Assembly (NCBI GenBank): GCA_963840455.1
Contig: CAWIYV010000010.1
Coordinates: 256,001 to 320,000, forward strand
Length of the DNA: 64,000 bases
Reading direction: 5' to 3'
Source: Nitrospirota bacterium
GTDB lineage: Bacteria; Nitrospirota; UBA9217
In this document: in pieces, positions 18,861-57,770 of the stretch
Position numbering within the stretch: position 1 is the stretch's first letter
How the letters are laid out: the number at the start of each line of letters is the position of its first letter
The notes under the pieces: generated by a model
Database searches by the model: none
What the model was told of the DNA's origin: nothing
What the model saw: the letters and a program-made list of their open reading frames with translations, nothing else
Translations under genes and position numbers: made by a program

Positions 18861-20358
18861 CTATTTAAACTTAAAGTCAGCTTTGTATTTGCTTCCGTCT
18901 CCCAGGGCAAGGACCATTGTTCTACACTGGCCGGCGTATGTCTTCGGTGTCTTCCAGTTGAACTGCCAGTAACCATCGCCATCGTACTGCAGCCCCGAAG
19001 CGCCTGCCGCATACTCTTCAATTGCGTCTGTCGGGTCCCCTGTCAGGCTGCCGCAGTTGATCATGTATGATCCTAAGTCCCTGAAGCTGGTCGGATCAGA
19101 GATCGCCACTCCGTTTGCGTCAGTGAGCCGCCATTTGACGGGGATGGCCTGACCGGCCTTTGCGCTATTCACGATCGGCAGATTATCGACGGGGCTGAAG
19201 AACCCGGAGAAGAGGATCTCCGTGGTCGTCACGCTGAAGGCGCCGCTCACGCCGCCAATGGTGAGTGTTGCATTCGTCGTGGTTGCATAGGATCCCGACG
19301 AGGTCAGCTGTACGCTCACACGATCCCCGTTGTTAATGGTCCCGGTTGCGGATGTATAGACCCCGCCGTTGATCGAATACTGCCCGCCCGTGATCGAGAC
19401 CGGTGCGGGCGAGTTGATCCCAGTAACGGTTATTGCATTTGACGTCATCACCGTGTTCAGCAGGACTCCGGTTTGAGCAATGAAAGTGTAAGGATCAGGC
19501 GTAGTGTCCACAGGTGCGTTCTGGGTCGTAACACTGAACGTGTCGCTCACGCCGCCGATGGTGAGCGTGGCATTCGTCGTAGTGGAATACGATCCAGACG
19601 AGGTCTGGCTGACTGCAACCGCAGAACCATTGCTAACGGTCCTGCGGATGCGGATGTGTAAATCCCGCCATTAATCGAATACTGGCCTCCAGTGATCGAG
19701 AGTTAGATCCCTGACTGTTACGATGAAGCTGGAAATTGCGTATTACCGATATGCGCGCAGGACGCGTTCATGCCAGAGACGGTTATGGTGTTCGAGGCGG
19801 GACGGACGCGTAACGATATCGCAGCAATGTGACGAGTGTATTCAGCGCAATATTGGTCTGGACTATGAAGGTGAATGGATCGGGGGTGATGTCTGACGGC
19901 GCAGTCCATGCAGTCTTTACGCAGGAGTTCGAAGCGCTGAAGTTGATCCACCCGATGTTCTCACCCCAGGCATAGCCGGTGAACTTGCCGTCGCTCCCAA
20001 TGATCACCCCTCCGCCTGAGGGCTTGAAGTTGATCCATCCGACGTTCTCCGCCCAGGCATAGCCCGAGAGGTTTCCCTTCCCATCATTCACAACGGCGCC
20101 GTTCGCGGGATCAAGCTTGATCCATCCGATGTTCTCCCCCCAGGCCATTCCCGTAACTGCCGTATCGGTAACTGTCACACCGGGCCCCCACGAGGGCTGG
20201 AAGTTGATCCAGCCAACATTCTCCGCCCAGGCATACTGGCAGCCTGTAGAGCCAGGATCCATGTTCTCGGCATAAGCGCCGAAAGCATACAATACAAAAA
20301 CGGCAGTGATGAGGAGGATGGTTGGACGTTTCCATTGACTGAGTATGTTTCGCTTCAT
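18861..20358 (-). pseudogene. secreted adhesin-like protein (AWxENxGWI repeats, DxTPDPxTF repeats, C-terminal PxKF-like domain), interrupted ~19640-19830
   Basis: ORFs 19783-20379 and 18861-19550 join through a frameshifted copy of the TPDP repeat. Confidence 0.7.
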
Positions 20359-20379
20359 GATTATTCTCCTCTTATCCAA

Positions 20380-20928
20380 TTACTGAACATCATGGCTCTG
20401 ACCGCCTCGCACACACCATACGTAATTGCCGGAAATAGGGAACGGGAGGCCAGTGGAGAAGTCTACGCTCCAATAATTAGAAGTCGACCAATGTAGGCTT
20501 CTAAAATAGGGCAATGGGGCTGCACCGAAGGAATAATTAAAAACTATATCGGAAAGGCTCGTTAACTGCTCAATTGTCGGGAGGTGCCATCCTTGCCGAC
20601 CGCCTACTACTTTAGCAACGCAGGTATCAATAGCGGTTTGCAAATCAATAATTTCAGTCTTACCCGCAAAGCTCTCCCAAACAAGGCCTGTTTCCTTGTC
20701 CAGCACTGCAGCGCCATCGAGCACCACCTCAAATCTTGGACACGCAGTGATGTCGCAACTAAGTTTCTGGCTCCAAGTCGGCGGAATCTGGTCCAGCGTC
20801 TTCATCGTCGGAGCAGGTACGGCTGAAGGCTCGAGACTGCCTGCGTTTCCCATTACGGGAAAGAACAGTACCACAGCAATTGCAATCACTATTGCTGCAC
20901 TAATAACGTATGACCCTTTTTTATACAT
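20380..20928 (-). CDS. DUF1566 (Lcl C-terminal, CLec-like) protein
   Basis: VLDKETGLVWE, GWHLPTIEQL, VWCVRGG. Confidence 0.85.
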   Translation of the reverse strand: MYKKGSYVISAAIVIAIAVVLFFPVMGNAGSLEPSAVPAPTMKTLDQIPPTWSQKLSCDITACPRFEVVLDGAAVLDKETGLVWESFAGKTEIIDLQTAIDTCVAKVVGGRQGWHLPTIEQLTSLSDIVFNYSFGAAPLPYFRSLHWSTSNYWSVDFSTGLPFPISGNYVWCVRGGQSHDVQ

Positions 20929-21065
20929 GGTCTGATACTTCTTTGCATTGAATATCCGGAAAACTTCATGACATGCTCATATTAGTCCACATCCGGTTAA
21001 TACAGCCAGCATAGGTTCACCTCTGCACCCAACTAACAAATTATCAACCATCTCAAATCACCCAA

Positions 21066-21641
21066 TTACTGACCATCATAGCTCTGTCCACCTCGCACAC
21101 ACCACACAAGCGCAGAGTCGGTCTTAACAAAGTGGCTCACGGCGCTAGTGCCGATCATCAAGGTAAACGCGCGGGAGGGAGTGTCGGGGAAGAGAGTAGA
21201 CGTCCAGTAGTAGCCCGTTACCACGCCTGTAAAGGGATGTCCTGCCGGCAGCTTTGGATATCCAGCGGAAGACGAGTCAACGAGGCTCGCGAATTGCTCA
21301 ACTGTAGGGATGTGCCATCCTTTTCGGCCGCCCAACCATTTGTCAATGCAACCATATACAGCATTAATCCAAGGTGCGGACGTCGTACTCGGCGACTTTT
21401 CCCACACTAGGCCTGTTTCCTTATCAAGAACAGCAGCACCATCGAGCACCAACTCAAACCTTGCTGCGCCGGAAGTCTTCTGACTCCAGGTCGGCGGGAT
21501 CTGGTCAAGCGTCTTCATGGTCGGAGCGGGTGCTGCTGAAGGTTCGAGACTGCCCGCAATCCCCATCACCGGAAAGAACATCACCACAGCAATTGCCAGA
21601 ACGATTACTGCGCCTACGACGTATGGCTCTCTCTTACACAT
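21066..21641 (-). CDS. DUF1566 (Lcl C-terminal, CLec-like) protein, paralog
   Basis: VLDKETGLVWEKSP, GWHIPTVEQ, YWTST, VWCVRGG. Confidence 0.88.
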   Translation of the reverse strand: MCKREPYVVGAVIVLAIAVVMFFPVMGIAGSLEPSAAPAPTMKTLDQIPPTWSQKTSGAARFELVLDGAAVLDKETGLVWEKSPSTTSAPWINAVYGCIDKWLGGRKGWHIPTVEQFASLVDSSSAGYPKLPAGHPFTGVVTGYYWTSTLFPDTPSRAFTLMIGTSAVSHFVKTDSALVWCVRGGQSYDGQ

Positions 21642-21679
21642 GGCCTGTACCTCCTTCTCGACTGACATTAATTTCTGCC

Positions 21680-22405
21680 CTATTGTTTCTTTGCGCCTTT
21701 TTCATAGAAAGCAAGGTTCTCCTTGAGCCCCTTGTTCTCCGGCTCCAGCTCGATCGCCTTCTTTTCCGTTTCGATCGCCTCCGCCTTCTTGCCGTTGATG
21801 AAGTATGCCCGTGCGAGCGTGTCGAGCGCCTCGGCATTCTTCTCCTTCGTCATTTCCACGGCCCTCACTGCGTGCTCCAGGGCCTTGACCTTGTCCTGAA
21901 GCTTCTCGTCCTTTGCCGATGCATAGAGCCACGCCAGATTATTGTGCACACTCGGGTCCCTCGGGTTCAGTCCCAGGGCTGTGTTGTAGTCCTTCAGCGC
22001 GCCTTCCTGATCACCTCCTTGCATCCTCACCAGCCCCCGGTAGGTGTAGGCTGATGCCATTCGCGGGTCTAGGATGATCACCTTGCTGAGATCCTCCTCT
22101 GCCTTCTTCCCGTCCCCTTTCCGGTATGAGGCAACGCCCCGGTCGAAGTAATGGGAGGCCACAAAAGGAGAGGCCTCTATTGCCTTCGTGTAGTTGTCGA
22201 TGGCCGCTTGGTAGTTCTTCCGGTCCAGCGCGGCCTTTCCGTCGCGAACGACCTGTTGATAAGCCTGGTATTTCTGCGCAAAGTCCTCCTGCGCGGCGCT
22301 CGCGCGGTGAAGCGTCAGCGCCCATGCGCAGAGCAGAATAAAGGCAATGAGCAGCCCGCGAAGCGAACTAGAAAGATACGTTAAATGTGTGAACTTATTG
22401 CTCAT
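21680..22405 (-). CDS. exported TPR protein
   Basis: Signal peptide, TPR repeats, NNLAWLYA...LDTLARAY. Confidence 0.88.
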   Translation of the reverse strand: MSNKFTHLTYLSSSLRGLLIAFILLCAWALTLHRASAAQEDFAQKYQAYQQVVRDGKAALDRKNYQAAIDNYTKAIEASPFVASHYFDRGVASYRKGDGKKAEEDLSKVIILDPRMASAYTYRGLVRMQGGDQEGALKDYNTALGLNPRDPSVHNNLAWLYASAKDEKLQDKVKALEHAVRAVEMTKEKNAEALDTLARAYFINGKKAEAIETEKKAIELEPENKGLKENLAFYEKGAKKQ

Positions 22406-22435
22406 TGTGGTTTATCCCAAAAGGGGCATCATTCA

Positions 22436-22483
22436 AAACAAAAAGCCGAGCATACCAAAGGTGTCAACCTTCGGTAGCTCGGC
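22436..22483 (-). terminator. riboswitch expression-platform terminator
   Basis: GCCGAGCUACCGAAGG-UUGACA-CCUUUGGUAUGCUCGGC followed by U-tract, overlapping aptamer 3' end. Confidence 0.82.
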
Positions 22484-22550
22484 CGTCTTGATATCATCAG
22501 ACCCGTTGCTTTCCGTCCCCGCCTCACGACGGGTTTGGCTTTATCGAGTT
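22470..22550 (-). ncRNA. cyclic di-GMP-I (GEMM-I) riboswitch
   Basis: GCCAAACCCGUC-GUGA-GGCGGGGACGGAAAGC...GGGUCU...AGACGGCCGAGCUACCGAA fits GEMM-I consensus. Confidence 0.9.
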
Positions 22551-22614
22551 GGTTTCGCTATATCACGAAACAGATGCGAATATGCACGATTTCTAAAATG
22601 CGATATTGGAAAAC

Positions 22615-22730
22615 TGAATCCAGGAGCGAACGTATTCCCCGTAGTTTGCTGCGGGGTTAGCGAGCGATTAGAATGAAATTACTGCCTTGAGGATCGAAGA
22701 TTCCCTGCAGCTTGCTGCAGGGAATTTCAA
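22615..22730 (-). mobile_element. ~118-bp two-hairpin element, copy B
   Basis: Reverse-complement match to copy A. Confidence 0.75.
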
Positions 22731-22923
22731 TGCTCGTGTTGCACTACGAATTTAGTTTGAATATAGCAGAGGAGGGGACACTATGATGGGGTATTTTTAG
22801 GGTATTGCATGAAATTGCAGCATATTCATGAAGCATACACTTGTGAGGATCGCGGGGATTTTCCGGGGACGGATGACGCTTCCTCGCGTTCTCTAACCGT
22901 CTGACGGTTCTTGGAAGAAAATC

Positions 22924-24252
22924 CTATCCCTTGTCGCTGTTCTGGATCGCCTGGTACAAACGCTGCACGAGGACCTGGTTGTAACCGTGAGAGGTCATGT
23001 TGGCCGTAATGCGGCCTTTGATGGGGAAACCGAGGAGATAGAGGTCGCCGATCAGGTCCAGGATCTTGTGGCGCACGAACTCGTCGGGATAACGGAGCTC
23101 CGTGTTGATGACCTTGCCGTCGTACATGATGATGTGCGACTGGAGATACCCGCCTCCGACCTTTCCCAGTTTCTGGGCCATATCGATGTTCTCAAAGGTG
23201 TTGAAGGAGCGGGCCGGAGCTATGTCCCGCGCGAAAGAGCCCGTCATCGGATTGAACGTAAGGACCTGTTCGCCTATGGGGAGCGGATAGTCGACGCGCA
23301 TCGATATCTCGAACCCTTCATAAGCCTCCGCATAGAGATGCTTTTCATGCTTTTCTTCTTTTCCAAATCCGATCTTTTGGCGGATGACAGCGACCTTGGT
23401 GGAGGCGGACTGTTCCTCGATCCCCGCCTCTTCGATGAGTCCGCAAAAATCCTTGGCGGAACCGTCCACGTTCGGTATCTCCTCGTCGACCTTGATGAGC
23501 ACATTGGTTATACCGTACATGGAAAGGACCGCCATCAGGTGCTCAACCGTGCGCACCCGCCGCCTGCCGTTGTCCAGGGTGGTGGAGTTGGCGGAGAAGG
23601 TCTTCGAGGAGCCGACCTGGGCGTAATCCTCAAGGGACGTAATATGTCCACGGATGGTCTGGCCGTCAAGCGTTTGATAGACGATCCCTTCGTTGATACC
23701 GAGGGGGCTTAGAATGATACCGGTGTTCCGGCCGCTCAGGAGCCCGATGCCGTTCAGGACCATGTTCCCCCGCAGGGTGCGCTGTGGTTCAGGGGAATCC
23801 ACCACGTCCACCACGCCGGGAGGCATCGAAAGATCGGCGCTGACGATCTCAAGCCTCGTATCCGAGGGCAGGACCGTGCTGCGCCCGGCAGGCCGGTGCT
23901 TCAGCGCGGACTCCACCTTGTCGAGCAGGACCTCCATATGCAGCGGCTTTTCCAGAAAATCGTAGGCGCCCGCCTTGATGGCGGCAACCGCCGACTCGAT
24001 GCCGGCATGTCCGCTCATCATGATGACAGGGAGCTGGGGGAACCGGCCATGCAGACGTTTCAGAAGCTGCATGCCGTCCATGCCGGGAAGCCAGACATCC
24101 AGCAGGACGAGAGAGGGCTCCATGGTAGCGAGCCTCTCCCAGAAGCTCTCCGAATCTGGAAATATGAGGGCCGGATATCCCTCGTCCTTCAGGATGCTCG
24201 CGACCGTGGAACAGATGGAAGGTTCGTCGTCTACTATACAGATAGGGTTCAT
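22924..24252 (-). CDS. lpxC: receiver domain fused to UDP-3-O-acyl-GlcNAc deacetylase
   Basis: IVDDE, LLDVWLPGMDG, FLEKP (REC), then TVEHLMAVL and HKILDLIGDL (LpxC zinc motifs). Confidence 0.9.
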   Translation of the reverse strand: MNPICIVDDEPSICSTVASILKDEGYPALIFPDSESFWERLATMEPSLVLLDVWLPGMDGMQLLKRLHGRFPQLPVIMMSGHAGIESAVAAIKAGAYDFLEKPLHMEVLLDKVESALKHRPAGRSTVLPSDTRLEIVSADLSMPPGVVDVVDSPEPQRTLRGNMVLNGIGLLSGRNTGIILSPLGINEGIVYQTLDGQTIRGHITSLEDYAQVGSSKTFSANSTTLDNGRRRVRTVEHLMAVLSMYGITNVLIKVDEEIPNVDGSAKDFCGLIEEAGIEEQSASTKVAVIRQKIGFGKEEKHEKHLYAEAYEGFEISMRVDYPLPIGEQVLTFNPMTGSFARDIAPARSFNTFENIDMAQKLGKVGGGYLQSHIIMYDGKVINTELRYPDEFVRHKILDLIGDLYLLGFPIKGRITANMTSHGYNQVLVQRLYQAIQNSDKG

Positions 24253-24429
24253 AGAAGATCATGCCTCATGTTCGTACCGGGCAGATTGCGCGCTTCACCT
24301 ACGAGCAAGCAATGTCTGTTGATAATCAGGAGATCCAAAGTACCGGATGAAACACGCACATCGACGGAATTAACCGGCCCCTTTGATCCTATTGCCTATT
24401 TGGCGCGATGGCCTCACCAATGTTAGTGC

Positions 24430-24861
24430 TTATTTTGAAAAATCAAACTCAAATGCTGTTGCATCTCCATCGGCGAGAGACTTGACACCGTAATATTTAC
24501 CACCAGCTTTGAATATGTATTTGCACCATTTTTCAGTGCGTTTAGGCCATTCAAGCGTAACGCAATAAGTTCCATTTTTACCAATATGCCATGTACCTTG
24601 AGCGGTTACTTGCGTCATTAACTTTTTCATACTACGGCCAACATCGCTATAGGCAACAAATTTACCATCGAGCTCATTCGTCCACTTGCGGGTGCTCCCG
24701 GCGATATAGCTGATGACTTTGGCATTCGGCATAAGCTGGTTTAGCTCGTCTGTTGATAGCTGAACCCCGTTCTGTGCCTTAAGGTCGTTCAGAACCAGGT
24801 CACCAGCTTGAGCAGCCAAGGGAAAGGCAAGCAAAACGGATACAAGGATTGAACGAAGCAT
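24430..24861 (-). CDS. exported hypothetical protein (DUF995-like), lower GC
   Basis: Signal peptide; GTWHI..GTYCV..W..WC pattern. Confidence 0.6.
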   Translation of the reverse strand: MLRSILVSVLLAFPLAAQAGDLVLNDLKAQNGVQLSTDELNQLMPNAKVISYIAGSTRKWTNELDGKFVAYSDVGRSMKKLMTQVTAQGTWHIGKNGTYCVTLEWPKRTEKWCKYIFKAGGKYYGVKSLADGDATAFEFDFSK

Positions 24862-24994
24862 GAGACACCCCCTAATCAGTTATTCGGCATCTCCAGCTTT
24901 GATCACCTCGGCTATAAGTACAGGATGATCTTACATGACGACTATAGCATAAACGTTTTATTTCTAAAAGTAGTTTCCCGGCCGACGTACTTGC

Positions 24995-25119: not shown

Positions 25120-26094
25120 CTACCCCTTTCCGATCGCAGCAAGGTCCTCCTCGATCATGCCACGGAAGAGCGGGACCTTATACTCGTTCTCTTTGAGCGG
25201 CTGCGCGTTCTTCATCGCGGCCTCTGCTGCCTTCGTGATGACATCAGCATCGAGCTTCTTGCCTGTAATGGCCGCCTCAATCTCCCGGGACCTCCAGGGA
25301 ACAGGCGCGGCGCCGCTCAGGACCGCGCGGGCATCAGCGACCACGCCGTCCTTGAACCGGAGCGCCAGTGCGATTCCGGCCAGGGCAAAATCCCATGACG
25401 CCCGCGCCCGCACCTTGCGGTACGAGCTGCGCAGTCCGCGTGCAGGCGGCAGCACGATCTCGGTAACGATCTCTCCCGGCTCGAGCACCGTTTCCCTGCG
25501 CACATCCGTACGCGGCAGAACGTGGAACTTCTCGACCGGAACGGTCCTCGAGCCTTTCGGTCCCGTGATCCGCACCGAGGCATCGAAGGCGACAAGCGCC
25601 GGCGCCGTGTCCGAAGGATGGACGATGAAGCAGGGCCCGCCGCCCAGGATGCAATGATACTGGTTCTCGCCGGCAACAGCGAAGCACTTCTCCCCGCCCT
25701 TCCGGAGGCAGTCGAACTCTCCGCGGTAGTACCAGCAGCGCGGCTTCTGGCAGAGGTTGCCGCCCATGGTCCCCTGGTTCCTAAGCTGGGGGCTCGCAAC
25801 CTCGCGGGCTGCCTGCGCAAGCGCCGCATAGTGTTCATTCACTGCCGGATGCTCCGCCACCTCGGTGATGGTCGTGAGCGCGCCGATGCGCAAGCCGTTG
25901 TCTGGGGTTGTGGTGATCCCTTTCAGCTCTTTGAGCCCGCTGATGCTCACCAGCTTCTTGACGGCAAAAACATGATCTCGCAAGCATCCGAGGAGGTCGG
26001 TCCCTCCCGCATGCAGACCGGCGCCTGGCGAGGAGAGTTGTTTCATTGCCTCCTTCAGGGTTTTTGGACGTACATAGGAAAAGTTTGTCAGCAT
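25120..26094 (-). CDS. xanthine dehydrogenase family FAD subunit (PaoB/YagS-like, 4Fe-4S insert)
   Basis: AGGTDL, ASPQLRNQGTMGGNLCQKPRCWYYR. Confidence 0.9.
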   Translation of the reverse strand: MLTNFSYVRPKTLKEAMKQLSSPGAGLHAGGTDLLGCLRDHVFAVKKLVSISGLKELKGITTTPDNGLRIGALTTITEVAEHPAVNEHYAALAQAAREVASPQLRNQGTMGGNLCQKPRCWYYRGEFDCLRKGGEKCFAVAGENQYHCILGGGPCFIVHPSDTAPALVAFDASVRITGPKGSRTVPVEKFHVLPRTDVRRETVLEPGEIVTEIVLPPARGLRSSYRKVRARASWDFALAGIALALRFKDGVVADARAVLSGAAPVPWRSREIEAAITGKKLDADVITKAAEAAMKNAQPLKENEYKVPLFRGMIEEDLAAIGKG

Positions 26095-26134: not shown

Positions 26135-28459
26135 CTACTTCATTGCCTGGCTGAACAGCTTCATGAGCCGCGGCGGGATCATCGGCGTTTCAAAGACCCT
26201 CACGCCCGTGGCATGATACACGGCATTCCCGATGGCCGCTGCCGTAGGGATGGTCACAGGCTCACCCAGTCCCTTAGCGCCCGTAAGATTCGCTTCGGGA
26301 TCCGGCCGGTCTATGGGAAGGCACGTCATGTCCGACGGGACATCGAGCATGGTCGGCAGTTTATAGTCGTGCCAGTTCTTGTTCACCAGCTTGCCGGTCT
26401 GATCTTTGTCAAGGACCCTGCCCTCGGTCATGGCAAAGCCGATGCCCATCGTGATGCCGCCGAATGTCTGGTTGTCGAAGGTCAGCCGGTCCATTACCCT
26501 TCCGCTGTCCTGTGCCGCCAGGAAGCGGACGATCCGGACCTCGCCTGTCCTCGTATTCACCTCCACTTCGCAGAACTGCGCGGCAAAAGGGTTCACGACC
26601 TTGCCTTCCGGGTTCGGGCCGCGGTAGCCTACACCCACAATGACCCCGCGCTTTTTAAGCCCCGTGACACCGGTGATCTTGATCTTTTTCGACGGATCGG
26701 AGAGCGAGACGATCTCGTCCCCGCTCAGCACCAGGTCCGAAGAACTTGTTTTTAGATCTTCTGCCGCATGCTCCAGGAGCTGCTGCTTGACGCTCAAGGC
26801 CGCTGCGCGCACGGCCGGCGATTCCGTCGGCACGGTCTTGCTGCCGCCGCTCGGCGTTGCATACTGCGTCGTGCCTGTGTCGGCATGCTCGATCTGGAGC
26901 GCGTCGGGCTTCACACCCAGCTCTTCGGCGACGACCATGGCCATCACGGTCTTGGTGCCGGTGCCGAGGTCACTCGCGCCCATGTTGAGGTTCGCGCTGC
27001 CGTCGGCAAAGAACTTCACGAGTACCGTGGACGGAGGATTGCCGCCGCCAGCGACCCAGAGGCCGGCCGCCATGCCCACTCCTCTCCTGATATGTCCGGT
27101 CTTCGGCAGCCCGGCGATCTTGTTCCGCGCTTCCTTCCATCCGAAGGCTTGAGCGCCTTTCTCAATGCACACTTGCAGCCCGGTCGTGGTGTAGGGCGGA
27201 TTGTCCGGCCGCGCCTGGCTGAAGGCCGGAACGTTCTTGAGCCGCAGCTCGACAGGGTCCATCCTGACCGCCTCTGCCAGACTGTCGAGCATCTGCTCGA
27301 GCGCCCACGCACCCTGGGGATGGCCGGGCGCGCGAAACGGCCGGGCAGGACCGGCATTGATGTACACATCCGTCGTATCGGTGCTGACATTGGGACAGCG
27401 GTAAAGGTCGCGGACCAGCCAGTCAAGAAGCGATGTTCCGCCTGCGGGATAGGCGCCGCTGCTGCCGATGCCGCTGAATTCGAGGGCGGTAAGCGTCCCG
27501 TCCTTCTTCACCCCCGCCTTCAGTTTCATGGTGCTCGGCGGCCGGTTCCCCGCGGCGAGGTAGGTCTCTTCGCGCGAGAAGAACAGCTTGACCGGACGGG
27601 CGGTCCTCTTCGCGAGCAGCGCGGCGATTATGGTTGCCTTGTCCGCCATCAGCTTGCTGCCGAAGCCGCCTCCCATATAATGCCCGATGACGCGCACTTT
27701 CGAGAGCGGCAGTCTCAGCACCTCGGCGACCCGCGCCTGGACCGCGAACACCCCCTGCGTGGATTCCCAGATCGTGAGGGAATCGCCGTCCCACTTTGCA
27801 ACGCACCCGTGCAGTTCCATGGGCGTGTGGAGCTCGCTCTCGTTCCGGTACGTCTGCTCGAGCACGACGTCCGCTTCGGCAAATCCTTTCGCTACGTCGC
27901 CGCGCTCGTACTTGTCCGTCTTGACCTTGTTCCCTTCCTTGTGCACCTGCGCGGCTCCCGCATCGAGTGACTTGCGCTCATCGGACACGAACGGGCAGGA
28001 TATCATAGGCTCACCTTGATCGACCGCACGGCATCCCATGCCTGGTACGGGGTCTCTGCTGCCACTGCGGCTACGGTCTCTCCCTCGAACCGGCACTGGG
28101 GATCAAAGAGCTTTGTCTTCACCTCCGGTGTATAGGGCCACAGGATGTCCGCACCCGGCGTTTTGGCGGAGAGAACAGCTCGAACGCCCACAGCCTTCTC
28201 TGCCTCCCTCGTGTCCACGTCCTTGACCACGGCATGGGCGTGCGGACAGCGGAGGATCGCGGCGAACAGCATGTCCGGGAAGATGATGTCAGAAGGATAG
28301 ACTGCGTTCCCGCTCACGCGCTCGTAGGCGTCCACGCGCGGCAGGGGCTTGCCCACCACCTTCGTTGTCTGCCAGGGCTTCACTCCCGATGCGGGCCTGG
28401 GCGTCTCCGGCAAGGGAATGTTCTGTGCGATAATAAAGTTCTCGTTCGTCCTTTTTCAT
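26135..28459 (-). CDS. xanthine dehydrogenase family molybdopterin subunit, apparent 1-bp frameshifts near 28429 and 27990-28010
   Basis: GGGFGSK, FRAPG, GAKGLGEP; N-terminus lies in ORF 28003-28413; RBS before ATG 28459. Confidence 0.8.
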
Positions 28460-28543: not shown

Positions 28544-29191
28544 TTATACTTTTTTCAGCTCGGCCGCGCGCGTTGCGGCATTCACGATATGCTTATAGGC
28601 GCCGCACCGGCACAGGTTGCCGCTCATGCCGCTTCGGATCTCTTCGACCGAGGGTCGGGGCTTCTTCCGCAGCAGTCCCTCGACGGACATGATCTGGCCC
28701 GGCGTGCAGTATCCGCACTGGAAGGCGTCGTGCTCTGCAAAGGCCTGCTGGACCGGGCCGAGCTCCTCGCCCTTCATCAGCCCCTCGAGTGTCGTGATCT
28801 TCGCGCCCTCGGCCTCCACGGCAAGGGTCATGCAGGCATACCGCGGCACATCATCGATCAGCACCGTGCAGGCCCCGCACTCTCCGCGTTCGCATCCGAC
28901 CTTGGTGCCCGTCAACCCCAGCCCTTCCCGGAGCACATAGAGAAGCGACCACCGCGGTTCCACGAGCAGCCGATAGCTGCGGCCGTTGATCAAGAGCACC
29001 ACGTTCGTCATCTCGCCGCGTTCAGTCATCTCCGCTTCTGCTGCAGGCGTCGCGTTCAGCTTGTCCGCCATAGCAAGCGAAACGGCACCGACCCCCATGG
29101 TCGTCAGGAATCCACGGCGCGTCAGCCCGCGGGCCGTCTCCTGGTCCTTTGCTTCCTGGTCCTGCGTGTCGGCATCATTCTCGTTCGTCAT
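28544..29191 (-). CDS. 2Fe-2S subunit with Tat signal (PaoA/YagT-like)
   Basis: TRRGFL, GCERGECGAC, QCGYCTPG, CRC. Confidence 0.92.
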   Translation of the reverse strand: MTNENDADTQDQEAKDQETARGLTRRGFLTTMGVGAVSLAMADKLNATPAAEAEMTERGEMTNVVLLINGRSYRLLVEPRWSLLYVLREGLGLTGTKVGCERGECGACTVLIDDVPRYACMTLAVEAEGAKITTLEGLMKGEELGPVQQAFAEHDAFQCGYCTPGQIMSVEGLLRKKPRPSVEEIRSGMSGNLCRCGAYKHIVNAATRAAELKKV

Positions 29192-29751: not shown

Positions 29752-31515
29752 TTAAAACAACCCCGAGACCTTGCCGGTGTTCACATCCACGTCCACACGG
29801 CGATAGGCCGGGTCTGATGCCGTGCCAGGCATGAGACTGATCGTCCCCGCACAGGGGCAGAGGAACTTGGCGCCGGAGTAGATCAGGACATCTCTGATGG
29901 GCAGCGTCCAGCCCTTGGGCACTCCCTTGAGCGTCGGATCGTGGGTCAGGCTCAGGTGGGTCTTGACCATCATGGTGGCGAAGTCAGCGTACTTGGGATC
30001 GCTTTCCAGCATCTTGGCCTTGGCTTCCGCATCAGGCAGCCAGGAAACACCATCCGCACCGTAAACTTCCTTGGCGATTATCGCTACTCTATCGCGCAGC
30101 TTCATCTCAAGCGGATAGAGGAACTTGAAGTCGTTCTTCTCGTTGCAGGCATCGATGACCGCGTCAGCCAGTTCCAAAGCCCCGTCGCCGCCCTTGAGCC
30201 AGTGCTGGGACTCGGCGCAGCGCGCACCGGCTGCTTCGGCGGCCTTTTTGACCGCGGCAACTTCGGCATTGGTATCGGTATAAAAACGGTTGATGCAGAC
30301 CACCGGGTTTATGCCGGACTTGCGGATGACATTGATCATGTGAACCATGTTGGCGCAGCCCTTTTCAACGAGGCCCACATTCTCCTTGGTGTACTCTTCA
30401 GGAATCGGCTTTCCGGCCACGACTTTGGGTCCGCCGCCGTGCATCTTCAGCGCGCGGACGGTGGTGGTAAGCACGGAAACGTGCGGCTTCAACCCGCTGT
30501 TGCGGCACTTGACGTTCCAGAACTTTTCGAACCCGATGTCGGCCGCAAAACCGGACTCGGTCACATGGTAGTCGAACAGCTTCAGGCCGACACGGTCGGC
30601 GATAATGGACGACTGGCCCACGGCTATATTGGCAAAAGGCCCGGCATGCACGAGGCAGGGGTTGTATTCCGCTGTGCACATAAGCGTAGGATTGATGGTG
30701 TTGCGCATGAAAGCGGCCATGGCATTGCCGACCTCCAGATCACCGGTGGTGACCGGTTTGCCGCTTTTATCGAAGGCAACCGTGATATTGTTCAGGCGTT
30801 CTTTCAGGTCCGCGAGGTCCTTGGCAATGGACAGGATAGCCATGCACTCTGAACCGACGGCGATGCCGAACTTGGACTGCATCATGAATCCATCCGTTCT
30901 GCCGCCGATGCCGATGATGATATTGCGGAGGCTCTGGGCGCAGAAGTCTATGATCCACCCCATCTCCACGCGGGTGGGATCGATGTCGAGCCTTCTCATC
31001 CTGGTGAGCCTCTTGAGCTGCTCATCGTTGTAATTACGCTCATGCTGCATACGGGAGGTCATCGCAACCATGGCCAGGTTGTGGGCGTTCATGATATCGT
31101 TGATGTCGCCGGTAAGTCCCAGCGAGAACTCGGTCATGGGGATCAGCAAAGAGTTTCCGCCGCCCGCGGCCGTCCCCTTCACGTTCATGGTGGGGCCGCC
31201 TGAAGGCTGACGCAGTGCGCCGCCGACGTTCTTGCCCCGCTTGCCAAGGCCCTCCATCAGACCGCACGAGGTCGTGCTTTTGCCTTCGCCCAGGGGGGTC
31301 GGGGTGATGGCCGTCACCTCGATATACTTGCCGTCGGGCTTGTTCTTGAGACGGTTATGGACCTTCAGGAAGTCGATCTTGGACAGGCGGCCCATGGGCA
31401 GCATCTCGTCTTTCTGCAGACCCAGTTTTTCGCGCCAAGCCTCGGGTGTCGGCATGTTCTTTTCCGCTTCCTCGGAAATCTGCCAGTCAGCCAACTTCGT
31501 TGCATCAAATGACAT
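29752..31515 (-). CDS. fhs: formate--tetrahydrofolate ligase
   Basis: [45 protein letters not shown]. Confidence 0.96.
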
Positions 31516-31644
31516 AGTAATCTCTCCTTTCCTGCTTTAAAATTTGCGAGCCCCTTGCGGCTCGATTTAAATGCTGTCTCTGAGACCCAATACTATGAAT
31601 CGGAGAATCGGCGATGCATGCGAAACAAATCTCTGTTTCTCCGA

Positions 31645-31821
31645 TTGAAGCTCCCTGCAGCAAGCTGCAGGGAATCTTCGATCCTCAGGGTAGTTTTTAT
31701 TCAAACCGCTCGCTAAGCGCTCGCTCCTGGATTTAAGCTCCCTCCTGCAAGAGGCATGGAGCTTCGATCCTCAGGGTAGTGTTTATTCTAATCGCTCGCT
31801 AAGCGCTCGCTCCTGGATTCA
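31645..31821 (+). mobile_element. tandem dimer of shortened two-hairpin element (copy C)
   Basis: Two units joined at GGATTTAAGCTCC; second hairpin deleted. Confidence 0.75.
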
Positions 31822-31843
31822 TAACTATTTTTCTGAAAAAAAA

Positions 31844-32302
31844 TTAATAGCTGATCAGGGCCTTCATAAGCTTTTCGTTCATGGCGTGTACGTTCCTGCT
31901 CGCCATCCTGGCCATGGTCCTCATGATCTTGTACATCATGACCGGATGGGACCGCTCGAGCTCCTTGAAGTCATCGGTGGTGATGCGGTACAGCTCCGTG
32001 GTATCCAGGGCCGTGGTGTTCGTGCTGTGCGTCTTCCGGTCCTCGATCACGGACAGCTCACCGAAAAAGTGGAGCTCGGTGAGGACCGCCAGGGTCTGCT
32101 TCCATCCGTCAGGCGTCGTCTTCGAGATCTCCACCTTCCCCTTGCGGATCAGGCAGATCCCCCGGGTCGCTTCACCCTCCCGGAAGATCGCAGACCCTTT
32201 CGGATAACGCTCCACCTGGATCTTTTGCGCCACTAGAGCGAGTTCGGCGTCATCCAGGTCGCTGAGCAGCCTCTGCGGCTTGAGGTCCGGTATGCCTGTC
32301 AT
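31844..32302 (-). CDS. stand-alone cyclic-nucleotide-binding domain protein
   Basis: IFREGE, FFGELSVI; no HTH. Confidence 0.88.
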   Translation of the reverse strand: MTGIPDLKPQRLLSDLDDAELALVAQKIQVERYPKGSAIFREGEATRGICLIRKGKVEISKTTPDGWKQTLAVLTELHFFGELSVIEDRKTHSTNTTALDTTELYRITTDDFKELERSHPVMMYKIMRTMARMASRNVHAMNEKLMKALISY

Positions 32303-32315
32303 CTGGCCCTCCCTG

Positions 32316-32493
32316 TTGAAGCTCCTGCAACAAGCTGCAGGGATGCTTCGATCCTCAAAGTAGATTATTTATTCTAATCGCTCGCTAAGCGCTCGCTCCT
32401 GGATTTAAGCTCCCAACTGCAAGAGGCGTGGAGCTTCGATCCTCAGGGTAGTTTTTATTCTAATCACTCGCTAAGCGCTCGCTCCTGGATTCA
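32316..32493 (+). mobile_element. tandem dimer of shortened two-hairpin element (copy D)
   Basis: Same layout as copy C; last 3 nt form the fdh stop codon. Confidence 0.75.
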
Positions 32494-35166
32494 TGACTTT
32501 GCAATCTTAACGGCCGTTACCTTGAGCGAAGGGATCTTGCAGACCGGATCGAGGCCGCTGCTGCTCGTCAGGACGTTGGCCGCCGCTTCATGGAAATGGA
32601 AGGGGATGAACACCACGCCCCGTCCGGGCCTTCGGGAAACCCGTGCCTTGAGCGTCAGCGAACCGCGACGCGAGGTGACCGTGACCAACCCATCATGCTC
32701 GATGGAAAGCTGCTTCGCATCCTCGGGATGGATCTCCACGTACGGCTCATGGGCCACTTGTTCAAGAGGTGCCACGCGCCGTGTCATGCTTCCCCCATGA
32801 TACTGGAACAGCATCCGCCCCGTGGTGAGCGTAAACGGATACTCGGCATCGGGCTGTTCCGGCGAAGGTCTATAGTGTACCATAGAGAAGGCGGCTTTGC
32901 CACGGGGGAAACCGCCCTTGAACAGGTACGGCGTGCCCGGGTGGTCCGGCGTCGGGCAGGGCCACTGCAGCCCGCCTTCGTCGTCGAGCCGGGAATAGGA
33001 TATCCCGGCCATGGCCGGCCATGCCTTTCCGATCTCCTGGAACACTTCCTCGGTATGGTGGTACGTCATCGGATGGCCGAGCCTTCTGCTCAACTCCATG
33101 ACGATATGGGAATCCTTCATGGCGAGACCAGGCGCGTTCACCACCCTCCTCACCCGCTGGACCCGACGCTCGGTGTTCGTGAACGTTCCCACCTTCTCGG
33201 CGAACGACGTCGCCGGCAGTACTACATGCGCCAGCTCGGCAGTCTCGGTCAGGAAGATGTCCTGCACCATGAGGAAATCCAGTGTTCCGAGGGCCTTTCG
33301 CGTATGGGCCATGTCCGGGTCGGTGATGACCGGGTTCTCCCCCATGATATAGAGCGCCTTGAGCCTGCCCTCCAATGCAGCGTCGATCATCGCGTTCGCC
33401 ATCAGGCCTTCGCGTTCAGGCAGCTTCACACCCCACAGCTCCTCGAACCGCTCGCGGACCTGCGGGACCACGACGCGCTGGTACCCCGGGTACAGGTTCG
33501 GCGAGCAGCCCATGTCCGTGGAGCCCTGGACGTTGTTCTGGCCCCGCAGCGGGTTCACGCCCGAGGATTCCCTGCCCAGGTTCCCGGTCATGAGGGCAAG
33601 GTTCGCAATGGAGAGCACATTGTCCGTGCCATGGGAATGCTGGGTGATGCCCATGGTGTAGTAGATCCCGGCCTTCTTCGATCGGCCGTAAAGGCGTGCC
33701 GCTTCGATGATCTTCTCCTTCGGAACGCCGGTGATCCGCTCCGCCGACTCAGGCGTGTATCCTTCGAGGTTCTTCCGGAAGCCCTCATCGAACCCCTCGG
33801 TCCGGGCCTCAATGAACTCCCGGTCCACGAGCCCCTCGTTCACGATCACATGCATCATGCCGTTCAGGAGCGCGACGTCCGTTCCCGGCCGCTGCTGCAG
33901 CCAGAGATGGGCCTGCCGGACGAGCGGCACCCGGCGCGGGTCCGCGATGACCAGCTTCGCGCCCTTCCGCACTGCCTTGATCATGCGGAGCGCCACAATG
34001 GGGTGGTTCTCTTTCGTGTTCGAGCCGATGACGAAGAGCACGTCGTTGTTCTCGATCTCGGCAAGGGAGTTCGTCATCGCCCCGGATCCGAACACAGTGG
34101 CCAGACCGGCCACCGTAGCGCTGTGTCAATAGCGCGCGCAGTGGTCCACGTTGTTCGTGCCGATGGCCGCGCGCATGAACTTCTGGAAGAGATAGTTCTC
34201 CTCGTTAGTGCAGCGTGCCGAGGCGAGGCCCGCAATTGCGTCGGGCCCCTCCAGATCCCGGATCCGCCTCAGCTGATGCGCCGCGTACGTGAAAGCCTCG
34301 TCCCAGGAGGCCTCTACGAGGGCCCCGTTCTTCCTGATCAGCGGGGTCTTCAGACGGTCCGGGCTGTTGACAAAGGAGAATCCGAACCTGCCCTTGGCGC
34401 AGAGCCAGCCCTCATTGATCGTGTCCTGCTGCGACGAGGCGCGGATCACTTCGTTCTTGCTGACATGCAGGGTGAGGTTGCAGCCGCACCCGCAGTAAGG
34501 GCAGACCGTCTCGACGCTCCTGATGTCCCGCTGCCGCCCCTTTCCCAGGGACGGCTTGCTGACCAGGGCGCCCGTCGGACACACGGTGATGCACTGGCCG
34601 CAGAACTCGCAGGAGAGGTCACGCTCAAAGGGCGGGCAGATCTTGGTCGCAAATCCCTTGTACGCGTAGTCGATGGCGCCCACGCCCTGCACCTCGTCGC
34701 AGACCTTTACGCACCGGCCGCAGAGGATGCACTTCTCCATGTCGCGCTCGACGAACGGGTTCCCGTCGCGCGTGGGATAGATCCGCCGTTCGCCGTGGAA
34801 CACCGGGGTCCGGATCTGGTACTTGTACGCCAGTTCCTGAAGCTCACACTCGCCGGCCCGTTCGCAGACCATGCAGTCGTACGGATGGTCGGAAAGAATG
34901 AGGTCGATGATGTCCCGCCGGAGGCCCTCGATATAGGGCGACGCCGTGGTCACCTCCATGCCGTTCTCCACGCGCGTGGTGCACGACGTCACCGGCTGCC
35001 CTCCTATCTCGACGATGCAGACACGGCAGGCGCCGGTGACCGAGAGCTTCGGATGGTGGCACAGGACGGGGATGGTGATGCCCAGCTTCTGGGCCGCCGC
35101 GAGAACGGTCGTGCCCGCGGGAACGGTGACCGGCATGCCGTCTATGTTGAGCGTGATATCACCCAT
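32491..35166 (-). CDS. fdhF: selenocysteine-containing formate dehydrogenase alpha subunit with N-terminal Fe-S domains
   Basis: NNVDHCARY-UGA(34126-34128)-HSATVAGL in frame; CPYCGCGC; PLRGQNNVQG. Confidence 0.93.
34094..34116 (-). promoter_or_regulatory. bacterial SECIS hairpin of fdh
   Basis: ACGGUGGCC-GGUCU-GGCCACUGU just 3' of the UGA. Confidence 0.85.
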
Positions 35167-57374: not shown

Positions 57375-57770
57375 CTAGTTCTTGAGCGGGATCCCCAGCT
57401 CCTCGATCTTCTGCATCAGTTCCCGGATATCGACGGGCTTCTGGTAATAATGGGTGGCGCCGCGATCGTAGGCGTCCTGCCGGACCTCCTCGGAGCCATG
57501 CGCGGTCATGATGATGACCTTGGTCCCGGGCCAGTAACGCCTGATATACGTCAGGAGCTCCAGCCCTTCCTCGCCCAGTATGCCCGACATGCGGATGTCG
57601 GCGATCACCAGGTCGAATGCGTGCTTCTTCAACGCCTCCTCGGCGGGCTCGAGCCTGCTCGCCGTGATCACTTCCACGTCCCGGGACCGCAGGGCGTACG
57701 AAAGCGTCAGCAGGATGGTCGGCTCATCATCAACGATCAGTATCTTCTTGGGAGCGTTGGCCTCGCCCAT
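57375..57770 (-). CDS. single-domain response regulator
   Basis: IVDDE, ADIRM, MTAHG, QKP. Confidence 0.88.
   Translation of the reverse strand: MGEANAPKKILIVDDEPTILLTLSYALRSRDVEVITASRLEPAEEALKKHAFDLVIADIRMSGILGEEGLELLTYIRRYWPGTKVIIMTAHGSEEVRQDAYDRGATHYYQKPVDIRELMQKIEELGIPLKN

Follow-up and report, generated by a model that had tools for sequence, protein, structure and literature searches.

A receiver–LpxC fusion in Nitrospirota, a candidate response regulator of lipid A synthesis

A receiver domain and an LpxC enzyme in one chain

LpxC (UDP-3-O-acyl-GlcNAc deacetylase) commits the cell to lipid A, which makes it the control point of lipopolysaccharide (LPS) synthesis and a major antibiotic target. 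In a 64,000-nucleotide stretch of DNA from a Nitrospirota bacterium (lineage UBA9217; assembly GCA_963840455.1, contig CAWIYV010000010.1, positions 256,001 to 320,000), hereafter the window, we found this enzyme joined to the receiver domain of a two-component response regulator (Table 1). The original prediction, made from the sequence alone, had described one continuous open reading frame (ORF) with an intact NtrC/NtrX-like receiver and the zinc and catalytic motifs of LpxC, and had proposed direct two-component control of LPS flux. The ORF is indeed continuous over 442 amino acids and lies on the minus strand, which the prediction had not specified; the plus-strand reading of the same interval is interrupted by a stop.

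The N-terminal part is a receiver. Pfam Response_reg (PF00072) matches residues 4-113 (E 4e-29, 101.4 bits against a cut-off of 30.2), and the top receiver model is NtrX (NF051870), matching residues 3-118 with 111.9 bits. Given the full-length cut-off of 600 bits for this model, the window protein is a descendant of NtrX, not a member. All the predicted receiver motifs (DD, the phospho-acceptor Asp in LLDVW, S and KP) stand at the checked codons, i.e., D8, D9, D52, S80 and K102-P103. No AAA+ or helix-turn-helix (HTH) domain was detected in the window protein by the Pfam scan.

The C-terminal part is an LpxC domain (PF03331, residues 157-433, E 9e-70, 235.7 bits against a cut-off of 27), and the fused protein also passes the NCBIfam lpxC equivalog model TIGR00325 (205.1 bits, cut-off 187.25). 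In a HMMER alignment with Pseudomonas aeruginosa LpxC, its EH, HKILD, GD and SH motifs coincide with the solved enzyme's catalytic and zinc motifs, and the EH, HKILD and SH of the original prediction are all found at the checked codons. The positions come from alignment with solved chains; the residues at them we take to be the zinc ligands (His, His, Asp) and the catalytic Glu and His. The AlphaFold2 model, computed from an alignment of 43 rows, has a mean predicted local distance difference test (pLDDT) score of 86.6 with both domains confident, the receiver showing the (beta-alpha)5 pattern at pLDDT mostly >90, and the top Foldseek matches are all LpxC structures (E 2e-29, target-normalised template modelling score 0.79-0.92). 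A complex prediction of the receiver (1-120) with the LpxC part (147-442) scored 0.00 in two runs in which the controls did not fold, and it is evidence neither way. Promoter and terminator scans of 22300-24900 returned nothing exceeding shuffled controls.

Table 1 Features of the window (positions counted from its first letter)
Feature	Position	Strand	Basis or remark
Receiver-LpxC fusion gene, whole (P0001)	22924..24252	-	442 codons + stop, ATG start; ORF list, translation, Pfam, NCBIfam
Receiver (REC), residues 1-120, NtrX/NtrC type	23893..24252	-	PF00072, NtrX model, AlphaFold2
D52 codon, predicted phospho-acceptor (LLDVW)	24097..24099	-	Codon check and conservation
Linker, residues 121-156 (36 amino acids)	23785..23892	-	AlphaFold2 pLDDT, conservation
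Linker motif LPSDTRLE, residues 128-135	23869-23892		Conservation
LpxC (UDP-3-O-acyl-GlcNAc deacetylase) domain, residues 157-442	22927..23784	-	PF03331, TIGR00325, Foldseek
E237-H238 codons	23539..23544	-	Aligned to general-base Glu and first zinc His of solved LpxC
HKILDxxGD codons, H395-K396-I-L-D399...G402-D403	23044..23070	-	Aligned to second zinc His, Lys, zinc Asp and Asp of solved LpxC
H422 codon (SH motif, S421-H422)	22987..22989	-	Aligned to catalytic His of solved LpxC
Run of small secreted proteins	18861-21668	-	
229-amino-acid protein	18861-19550	-	No Pfam match
198-amino-acid repeat protein	19783-20379	-	No Pfam match
Lcl_C (DUF1566) paralogue	20380-20928	-	
Lcl_C (DUF1566) paralogue	21066-21668	-	
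Molybdenum hydroxylase FAD subunit	25120-26094		Flanks the split large subunit
Molybdenum hydroxylase large subunit	26135-28413	-	Two overlapping ORFs
MoCoBD_1 + MoCoBD_2 ORF	26135-28096	-	Large-subunit part
Ald_Xan_dh_C hammerhead ORF	28003-28413	-	Large-subunit part
Molybdenum hydroxylase 2Fe-2S subunit	28544-29191		Flanks the split large subunit
Formate-tetrahydrofolate ligase	29752-31515	-	
Cyclic-nucleotide (cNMP)-binding protein	31844-32302	-	
Molybdopterin formate-dehydrogenase-like ORF	32491-34113	-	By eye from translation only
Receiver match	57402-57743	-	30% identity to P0001 residues 4-114

The fused gene is the only lpxC of its genome

The window's genome (G000) comprises 4.03 Mb in 14 contigs and is 100% complete with 0.83% contamination. 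The fused gene is its single PF03331 match, and tblastn searches with the canonical LpxCs of relatives (L018, L019, L023, L024 and L026) at E values up to 10 again returned the fused gene alone (C10:278939-279784). Contig C7 carries lpxB (358 bits), lpxK (317 bits) and lpxA (338.9 bits, above cut-off), the last of these beside an LpxD-like gene. With no other homologue and the rest of the Raetz pathway in place, the fused gene is the organism's only LpxC, and its product is very likely, judging from sequence, the lipid A deacetylase of the cell.

The place of the missing canonical copy can be located. In the relatives G021, G010 and G009, canonical lpxC sits between orthologues of C11:782442-783116 and C11:783389-784096, and in the window's genome 272 bp, free of any lpxC remnant, separate the two. 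Thus, the second lpxC for which the original prediction had advised a search is absent from this complete genome, and the canonical copy has gone from its syntenic site by true loss rather than through an assembly gap.

Fused and canonical forms alternate within the family

When 64 family genomes were searched with PF03331 (reported as counts with no statistical test, as kin are not independent), two score classes emerged: canonical proteins of ~300-400 amino acids (341-365 bits) and fused proteins of ~440-470 amino acids (237-257 bits), the latter in 42 of the 64. The fused form alone is found in 19 genomes, plus one (G067) that has a fused copy and an untyped fragment; 22 genomes hold both forms and 19 the canonical form only, and the three with no PF03331 match are 65-92% complete. 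Of the genomes with a completeness of at least 95% and a contamination of at most 5%, eight have the fused form only (G000, G001, G002, G017, G065, G066, G069 and G071), ten have both and six the canonical form only. Each of the three states occurs in several genera, interspersed, from which it follows that the two forms replaced one another repeatedly; by these counts the fused form is evidently able to replace the ordinary enzyme, with which it shares about 35-40% identity within the family. Fused genes were not seen in 16 sampled genomes from other families of the phylum.

The identities among fused genes do not track genus, e.g., G019 and G004 are 93.3% identical and the congeneric G005 and G004 90.4%, and the neighbourhood of the gene differs in each genus (loci L004-L013 and L208-L211), both of which hint at lateral movement within the family. 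No conserved neighbour of the fused gene is common to the window and G021, G076, G071 and G010. A canonical lpxC spread over three frames (G057) and a split fused gene (G016) were considered as cases of gene decay and rejected; they are probably assembly indel errors, because the same assemblies also show a fragmented ntrY.

The fusion extends well beyond the family. At E <= 0.001, 7571 of 8000 scored database candidates match, and the best 120 relatives, derived from many contigs (JGI, ENA, NCBI), all contain both Pfam domains (83-97% identity, 439-462 amino acids), far more than chance would give; depositor names, where given, are Nitrospirota or Nitrospirae metagenome-assembled genomes (MAGs). 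Among named records, the closest (78-95% identity) are all MAGs, with labels of Nitrospirae, Nitrospirota, Nitrospiria or Nitrospiraceae and no cultured strain among them. DNA runs of 15 studies also contain the fused gene, at partial word share. By record titles, fusions occur in Thermodesulfobacteriota (Desulfobacteraceae, Syntrophobacteraceae, Desulfomonile, Desulfatiglans), Nitrospinota, Ca. Binatota, Acidobacteriota, Thermodesulfovibrionia, SAR324, Oligoflexales / Bdellovibrionota and one Leptospirales MAG. The fused gene is the only PF03331 match in eight of ten genomes from other phyla (for which completeness figures were not available), and Desulfatiglandales G086 and Oligoflexus G087 hold both forms. 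A fusion unique to one assembly, one of two outcomes that the original prediction had named as fatal to its proposal, is therefore not what we observe. One MAG labelled Desulfocapsaceae (L138) carries a window-type fusion that is 74% identical to P0001 and nested in the Nitrospirota clade, which reflects either mis-binning or a recent transfer.

Both domains are conserved together

Across 43 diverse fusions D9, W54, D59, G60, S80, K102 and P103 of the receiver and E237, H238, H395, K396, D399, D403 and H422 of the enzyme are invariant, with D8 and D52 conserved to 90% or more. The same residues, without exception, reach 98-100% conservation in 121 close relatives (D52 is Asp in 121 of 121), and among 19 cluster representatives D52 is kept in 18, P0138 having Asn at the acceptor position. 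These patterns indicate that both the receiver and the LpxC domain are under constraint. The linker motif LPSDTRLE is likewise kept in the 121 close relatives despite a pLDDT <50, and may act as a short linear motif in docking or degradation.

An alignment of 142 fused and canonical LpxC domains has 26 columns conserved to 97% or more, among them those of all catalytic and zinc residues. Four other columns mark the fused clade: G178 (97% in fused vs 2% in canonical domains), K254 (96% vs 0%, canonical domains having mostly Glu), C270 (94% vs 3%) and E309 (86% vs 15%). In seven genomes with both forms, the fused LpxC domain was more alike than the canonical one in all 21 genome pairs, with mean identities of 86.2% for the fused LpxC domain, 68.2% for the canonical enzyme and 84.3% for the receiver.

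The fused clade and its putative NtrX ancestor

A full HMMER scan of 1.84 billion cluster representatives returned, among the best 150 matches listed, 23 further receiver-LpxC clusters (about 410-505 amino acids, one partial) and 15 clusters of 650-736 amino acids. These long relatives have the Pfam layout REC + Sigma54_activat + AAA_lid_14 + HTH_8 + LpxC, and there are decayed intermediates, among them P0126, which reads REC + HTH_8 + LpxC. The GAFTGA sigma-54 contact motif is present in none of 28 long forms and Walker A is kept in 26 of them; an AAA+ domain without GAFTGA is a mark of NtrX.

In a tree of 142 LpxC domains (IQ-TREE quick searches, LG+C20), the 62 canonical rows, stand-alone and LpxC-FabZ alike, lie on one side of a branch with a Shimodaira-Hasegawa-like approximate likelihood ratio test (SH-aLRT) support of 96, and on the other side lie all 69 receiver-bearing rows together with 11 rows resembling fragments or N-terminally cut forms. 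Trees of 52 rows repeat the split with support of 99 (LG+G4) and 97 (LG+C20). A clade made of the window-type and the resident canonical domains, a grouping chosen after the first tree, was rejected by the approximately unbiased test (log-likelihood difference 73.2, p 0.0018). Long and short fusions are interleaved, for example P0126 beside P0129 and P0138 beside P0125, a pattern in keeping with AAA+ and HTH parts that were lost repeatedly. A receiver tree, built on 124 columns and poorly resolved, places the window-type receiver with other fused receivers, apart from 12 other regulators of the window's genome.

In our reading the fusion was not made in this lineage. Its single clade started from an NtrX (receiver, AAA+ without GAFTGA, HTH) fused to LpxC behind ntrY, and shed the AAA+ and HTH parts several times over; in the window's sub-clade the gene was also separated from that of the kinase.

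A candidate sensor kinase

Linkage to a kinase is still visible in other phyla. Among 26 loci (65 of 101 neighbour ORFs scanned; three more loci dropped, their target ORF being outside the non-overlapping gene set), 13 have a kinase of 734-807 amino acids with the layout HAMP-PAS-HisKA-HATPase_c directly upstream on the same strand. NtrY_N is also matched by 11 of these 13, and DUF4390 precedes the kinase in L113 and L131. Other kinases lie nearby in two of the remaining loci (L027 and L136) and none in eleven.

The window's genome has exactly one NtrY_N match, a 745-amino-acid orphan kinase (C14:310657-312894) with no adjoining regulator. Along its whole length it shares 39% identity with the kinase next to fusion L113 of Thermodesulfovibrionia, and the genes around it recur in five relatives. 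We regard it as the best candidate for the phosphate donor, at odds that we would put at even or a little below, and it may possibly have two targets. Neither the family-wide profile of the kinase nor a ranking of receivers singles out the partner. The window also contains another receiver match (Table 1).

Phosphorylation control and its alternatives

We consider it probable that the only LpxC of this organism is built as a response regulator and that phosphorylation of D52 by a sensor kinase alters the level of active enzyme. An NtrX-lineage receiver (acceptor D52), a 36-residue linker and a complete zinc deacetylase would act as one chain, in which the phosphorylation state of D52, set by the kinase, would change the amount of active enzyme in the cell, so that an envelope or redox signal would act on lipid A flux directly, bypassing transcription. 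D52 is likely phosphorylated, and phosphorylation likely alters activity or stability, in either direction. It might restrain the enzyme, by analogy with NtrYX, which lowers lpxC expression in alphaproteobacteria, but this is speculation, and a CheB-like relief of inhibition is a guess. The direct two-component control of LpxC suggested in the original prediction is supported, most strongly by the absence of a second lpxC, with phosphorylation, kinase and effect as its conjectural parts; the descent of the receiver from NtrX and the unlinking of this sub-clade from ntrY go beyond that prediction.

Several observations weigh against this reading. As the original prediction had noted for its surroundings, no kinase is adjacent to the gene: none, NtrY-like or other, was found in the 64-kb window, in four family relatives or in five window-type loci of other phyla (SAR324, Desulfatiglandales, Oligoflexus and 'Deltaproteobacteria TL4'). 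The NtrY-type kinase occurs in 60 of the 64 family genomes, canonical-only ones included; as it does not follow the distribution of the fusion, it must serve some other partner. When the receivers of the window's genome were ranked with a profile built from the 13 kinase-linked fused ones, a 457-amino-acid REC-AAA+(GAFTGA)-HTH regulator (C14:380004) came first (160.8 bits), ahead of the fused protein (134.6 bits), with no other above 120 bits. The receiver tree is poorly resolved. In the protein itself, S349 stands where solved enzymes have T (ARTF -> ARSF), and linker residues 121-135 have a pLDDT <50; the linker being modelled with no confidence, the inter-domain geometry cannot be obtained from the model. 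Contigs from RNA libraries (X17, X20 and X16) match short stretches, mostly at <95% identity, and none spans receiver and LpxC. Lastly, the higher conservation of the fused copy could come in part from later lateral spread and not from stronger constraint.

Four other explanations have to be considered. The receiver could set the amount or location of LpxC and not its catalytic rate, phosphorylation exposing or hiding a degron or a protease-adaptor site; the proteolysis logic of Escherichia coli LpxC would then be kept, with a kinase as its trigger. The conservation of LPSDTRLE inside a stretch modelled with low confidence, as expected of a short linear motif, speaks for such a degron, as do the end of the protein 6-9 residues past the LpxC domain, i.e., with no long C-terminal tail, and the control of LpxC through protein level in model bacteria, described in passages of PMC3333781 and PMC12444477. 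Nothing points to a specific protease or adaptor, however, no neighbour gene is conserved, and the clade-specific G178, K254 and C270 inside the LpxC domain suit a domain-domain contact at least as well, so that we hold this explanation to be rather unlikely. A search for LapB (PF18073) adds little: the 28-position model matched a 460-amino-acid protein of the window's genome, and since 11 of 14 control genomes, Gram-positives included, were also matched, the model is not specific.

The receiver may instead be an unphosphorylated relic, kept as a folding, dimerisation or scaffold module on a constitutive LpxC. The kinase gene unlinked in the window's sub-clade, the Asn of P0138 in place of the acceptor Asp and the persistence of the candidate kinase in fusion-free genomes would all be in keeping with a relic. 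A relic should drift, however, and here the receiver (84.3%) is as conserved between genera as the enzyme domain (86.2%), with the acidic pocket, acceptor Asp, S80 and K102-P103 conserved to 98-100% in the 121 relatives and invariant or nearly so in the 43 fusions, which renders a mere relic improbable.

Still less probable, to the point of being hardly credible, is that the fused domain acts on another substrate or has a sensing role, an unrelated deacetylase serving in the fused-only genomes. It is true that 22 of 64 genomes keep both forms, as expected of paralogues with different jobs, and that the fused domain has signature residues of its own and lower Pfam scores (237-257 vs 341-365 bits). 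However, the protein passes the TIGR00325 equivalog model, shares with canonical LpxCs the 26 columns that are at least 97% conserved, all catalytic and zinc residues included, and is the sole homologue in eight high-quality family genomes and eight of ten genomes from other phyla, with lpxA, lpxB and lpxK kept in the window's genome. An artefact of assembly or gene calling can be dismissed, as the ORF is continuous, the best 120 relatives are all two-domain proteins from many independent samples, and the fusion recurs in 42 of 64 family genomes and in 15 studies.

Comparison with known systems

LpxC is known to be controlled in several ways: by FtsH proteolysis with LapB and YejM in enterobacteria, by Lon in some alphaproteobacteria, by activation through a partner protein in Pseudomonas, and by transcription. 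Phosphorylation control of a receiver-enzyme would combine two known kinds, namely response regulators with an enzymatic output and the control of LpxC. CheB, a response regulator in which a receiver is joined to a methylesterase, is the natural model for phosphorylation gating an active site; it likewise has receiver, flexible linker and hydrolase in one chain, with an unrelated output domain.

With canonical LpxC (E. coli, P. aeruginosa, Aquifex aeolicus) the fused protein shares the fold and the zinc and catalytic residues, and presumably the reaction. Unlike these, it has 156 N-terminal residues of receiver and linker and no long C-terminal tail, and it belongs to a separate clade. The one LpxC fusion that we found described is LpxC-FabZ (NF009667), reported in passages of Opiyo et al. 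(2010, PMC3087551) for Bacteroidota, Chlorobi and Verrucomicrobia; there the partner is C-terminal and metabolic, not a signalling domain, and in our tree these proteins (P0239, P0252 and P0268) fall among the canonical LpxCs. Among the papers listed by our full-text literature searches, none describes a receiver-LpxC fusion, in agreement with the original prediction, which knew of no characterised example; domain or gene-cluster tables in the supplements to PMC3087551 and PMC3333781 might include one. The words 'fusion', 'fused' and 'response regulator' are absent from the 2025 review of lipid A regulation (PMC12444477), which mentions no fused or phosphorylation-controlled LpxC.

The receiver fits NtrX of the NtrY/NtrX systems (Rhodobacter sphaeroides, Caulobacter, Brucella), and the long fusions share the NtrX layout and follow an NtrY-type kinase. 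Placement directly behind ntrY, as is typical of NtrX, is found in 13 of 26 loci of the other fused sub-clades but not in the window and nine window-type loci. In the systems described so far, NtrX acts on transcription and lpxC is a separate gene, whereas in the window fusion the enzyme would itself be the output, AAA+ and HTH are gone and the kinase is unlinked. The experimental link of NtrYX to LpxC comes from alphaproteobacteria: loss of ntrYX in R. sphaeroides raised lpxC mRNA 8.8-fold and increased LPS, lpxC being described there as lacking an NtrX site (passages of Lemmer et al. 2020, PMC7240162), and lpxC transcription is listed as repressed by NtrYX in R. sphaeroides and C. crescentus (passages of the 2025 Journal of Biological Chemistry review, PMC12444477).

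From a lineage related to many fusion carriers comes the two-component system DVU2931-DVU2934 of Desulfovibrio vulgaris, which is dedicated to lpxC: lpxC is given as the single target of the regulator DVU2934, and in Syntrophobacter fumaroxidans lpxC adjoins the orthologous regulator operon (passages of Rajeev et al. 2011, PMC3333781). Control in that system is transcriptional and its proteins are separate, in contrast to the one-chain fusion.

Other features of the window

Upstream and downstream of the fused gene by position lie genes of other kinds (Table 1). The large subunit of a molybdenum hydroxylase of the xanthine-dehydrogenase / CO-dehydrogenase type is split over two overlapping ORFs, through either a frameshift or a genuine split, and is flanked by its FAD and 2Fe-2S subunits. 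Beyond these, the formate-tetrahydrofolate ligase, the cNMP-binding protein and the formate-dehydrogenase-like ORF form a cluster (29752-34113) that suggests formate or C1 metabolism. The run of small secreted proteins includes two Lcl_C paralogues and a protein with about five repeats resembling AW(A/G)EN(V/I)GWI(N/K)F.

Implications for envelope control

The receiver-LpxC protein is a real, conserved and apparently unstudied response regulator with LpxC as its output. If phosphorylation acts on it as we postulate, a receiver on LpxC would give the cell a new way of controlling the enzyme directly and fast, and this would be the main control of LpxC in large and little-studied groups of bacteria, i.e., those carriers in Nitrospirota, Thermodesulfobacteriota, SAR324, Acidobacteriota, Binatota, Nitrospinota and Bdellovibrionota. 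More tentatively, and with a little less than an even chance in our estimate, the fusion may serve as a Rosetta-stone link that identifies NtrYX as being at root a system for outer-membrane and LPS homeostasis, with the family as a natural swap experiment in which a kinase-controlled enzyme has repeatedly replaced the ordinary one. A receiver on LpxC also supplies an independent, genomic reason for the tie of NtrYX to the cell envelope that experiments in Rhodobacter have revealed.

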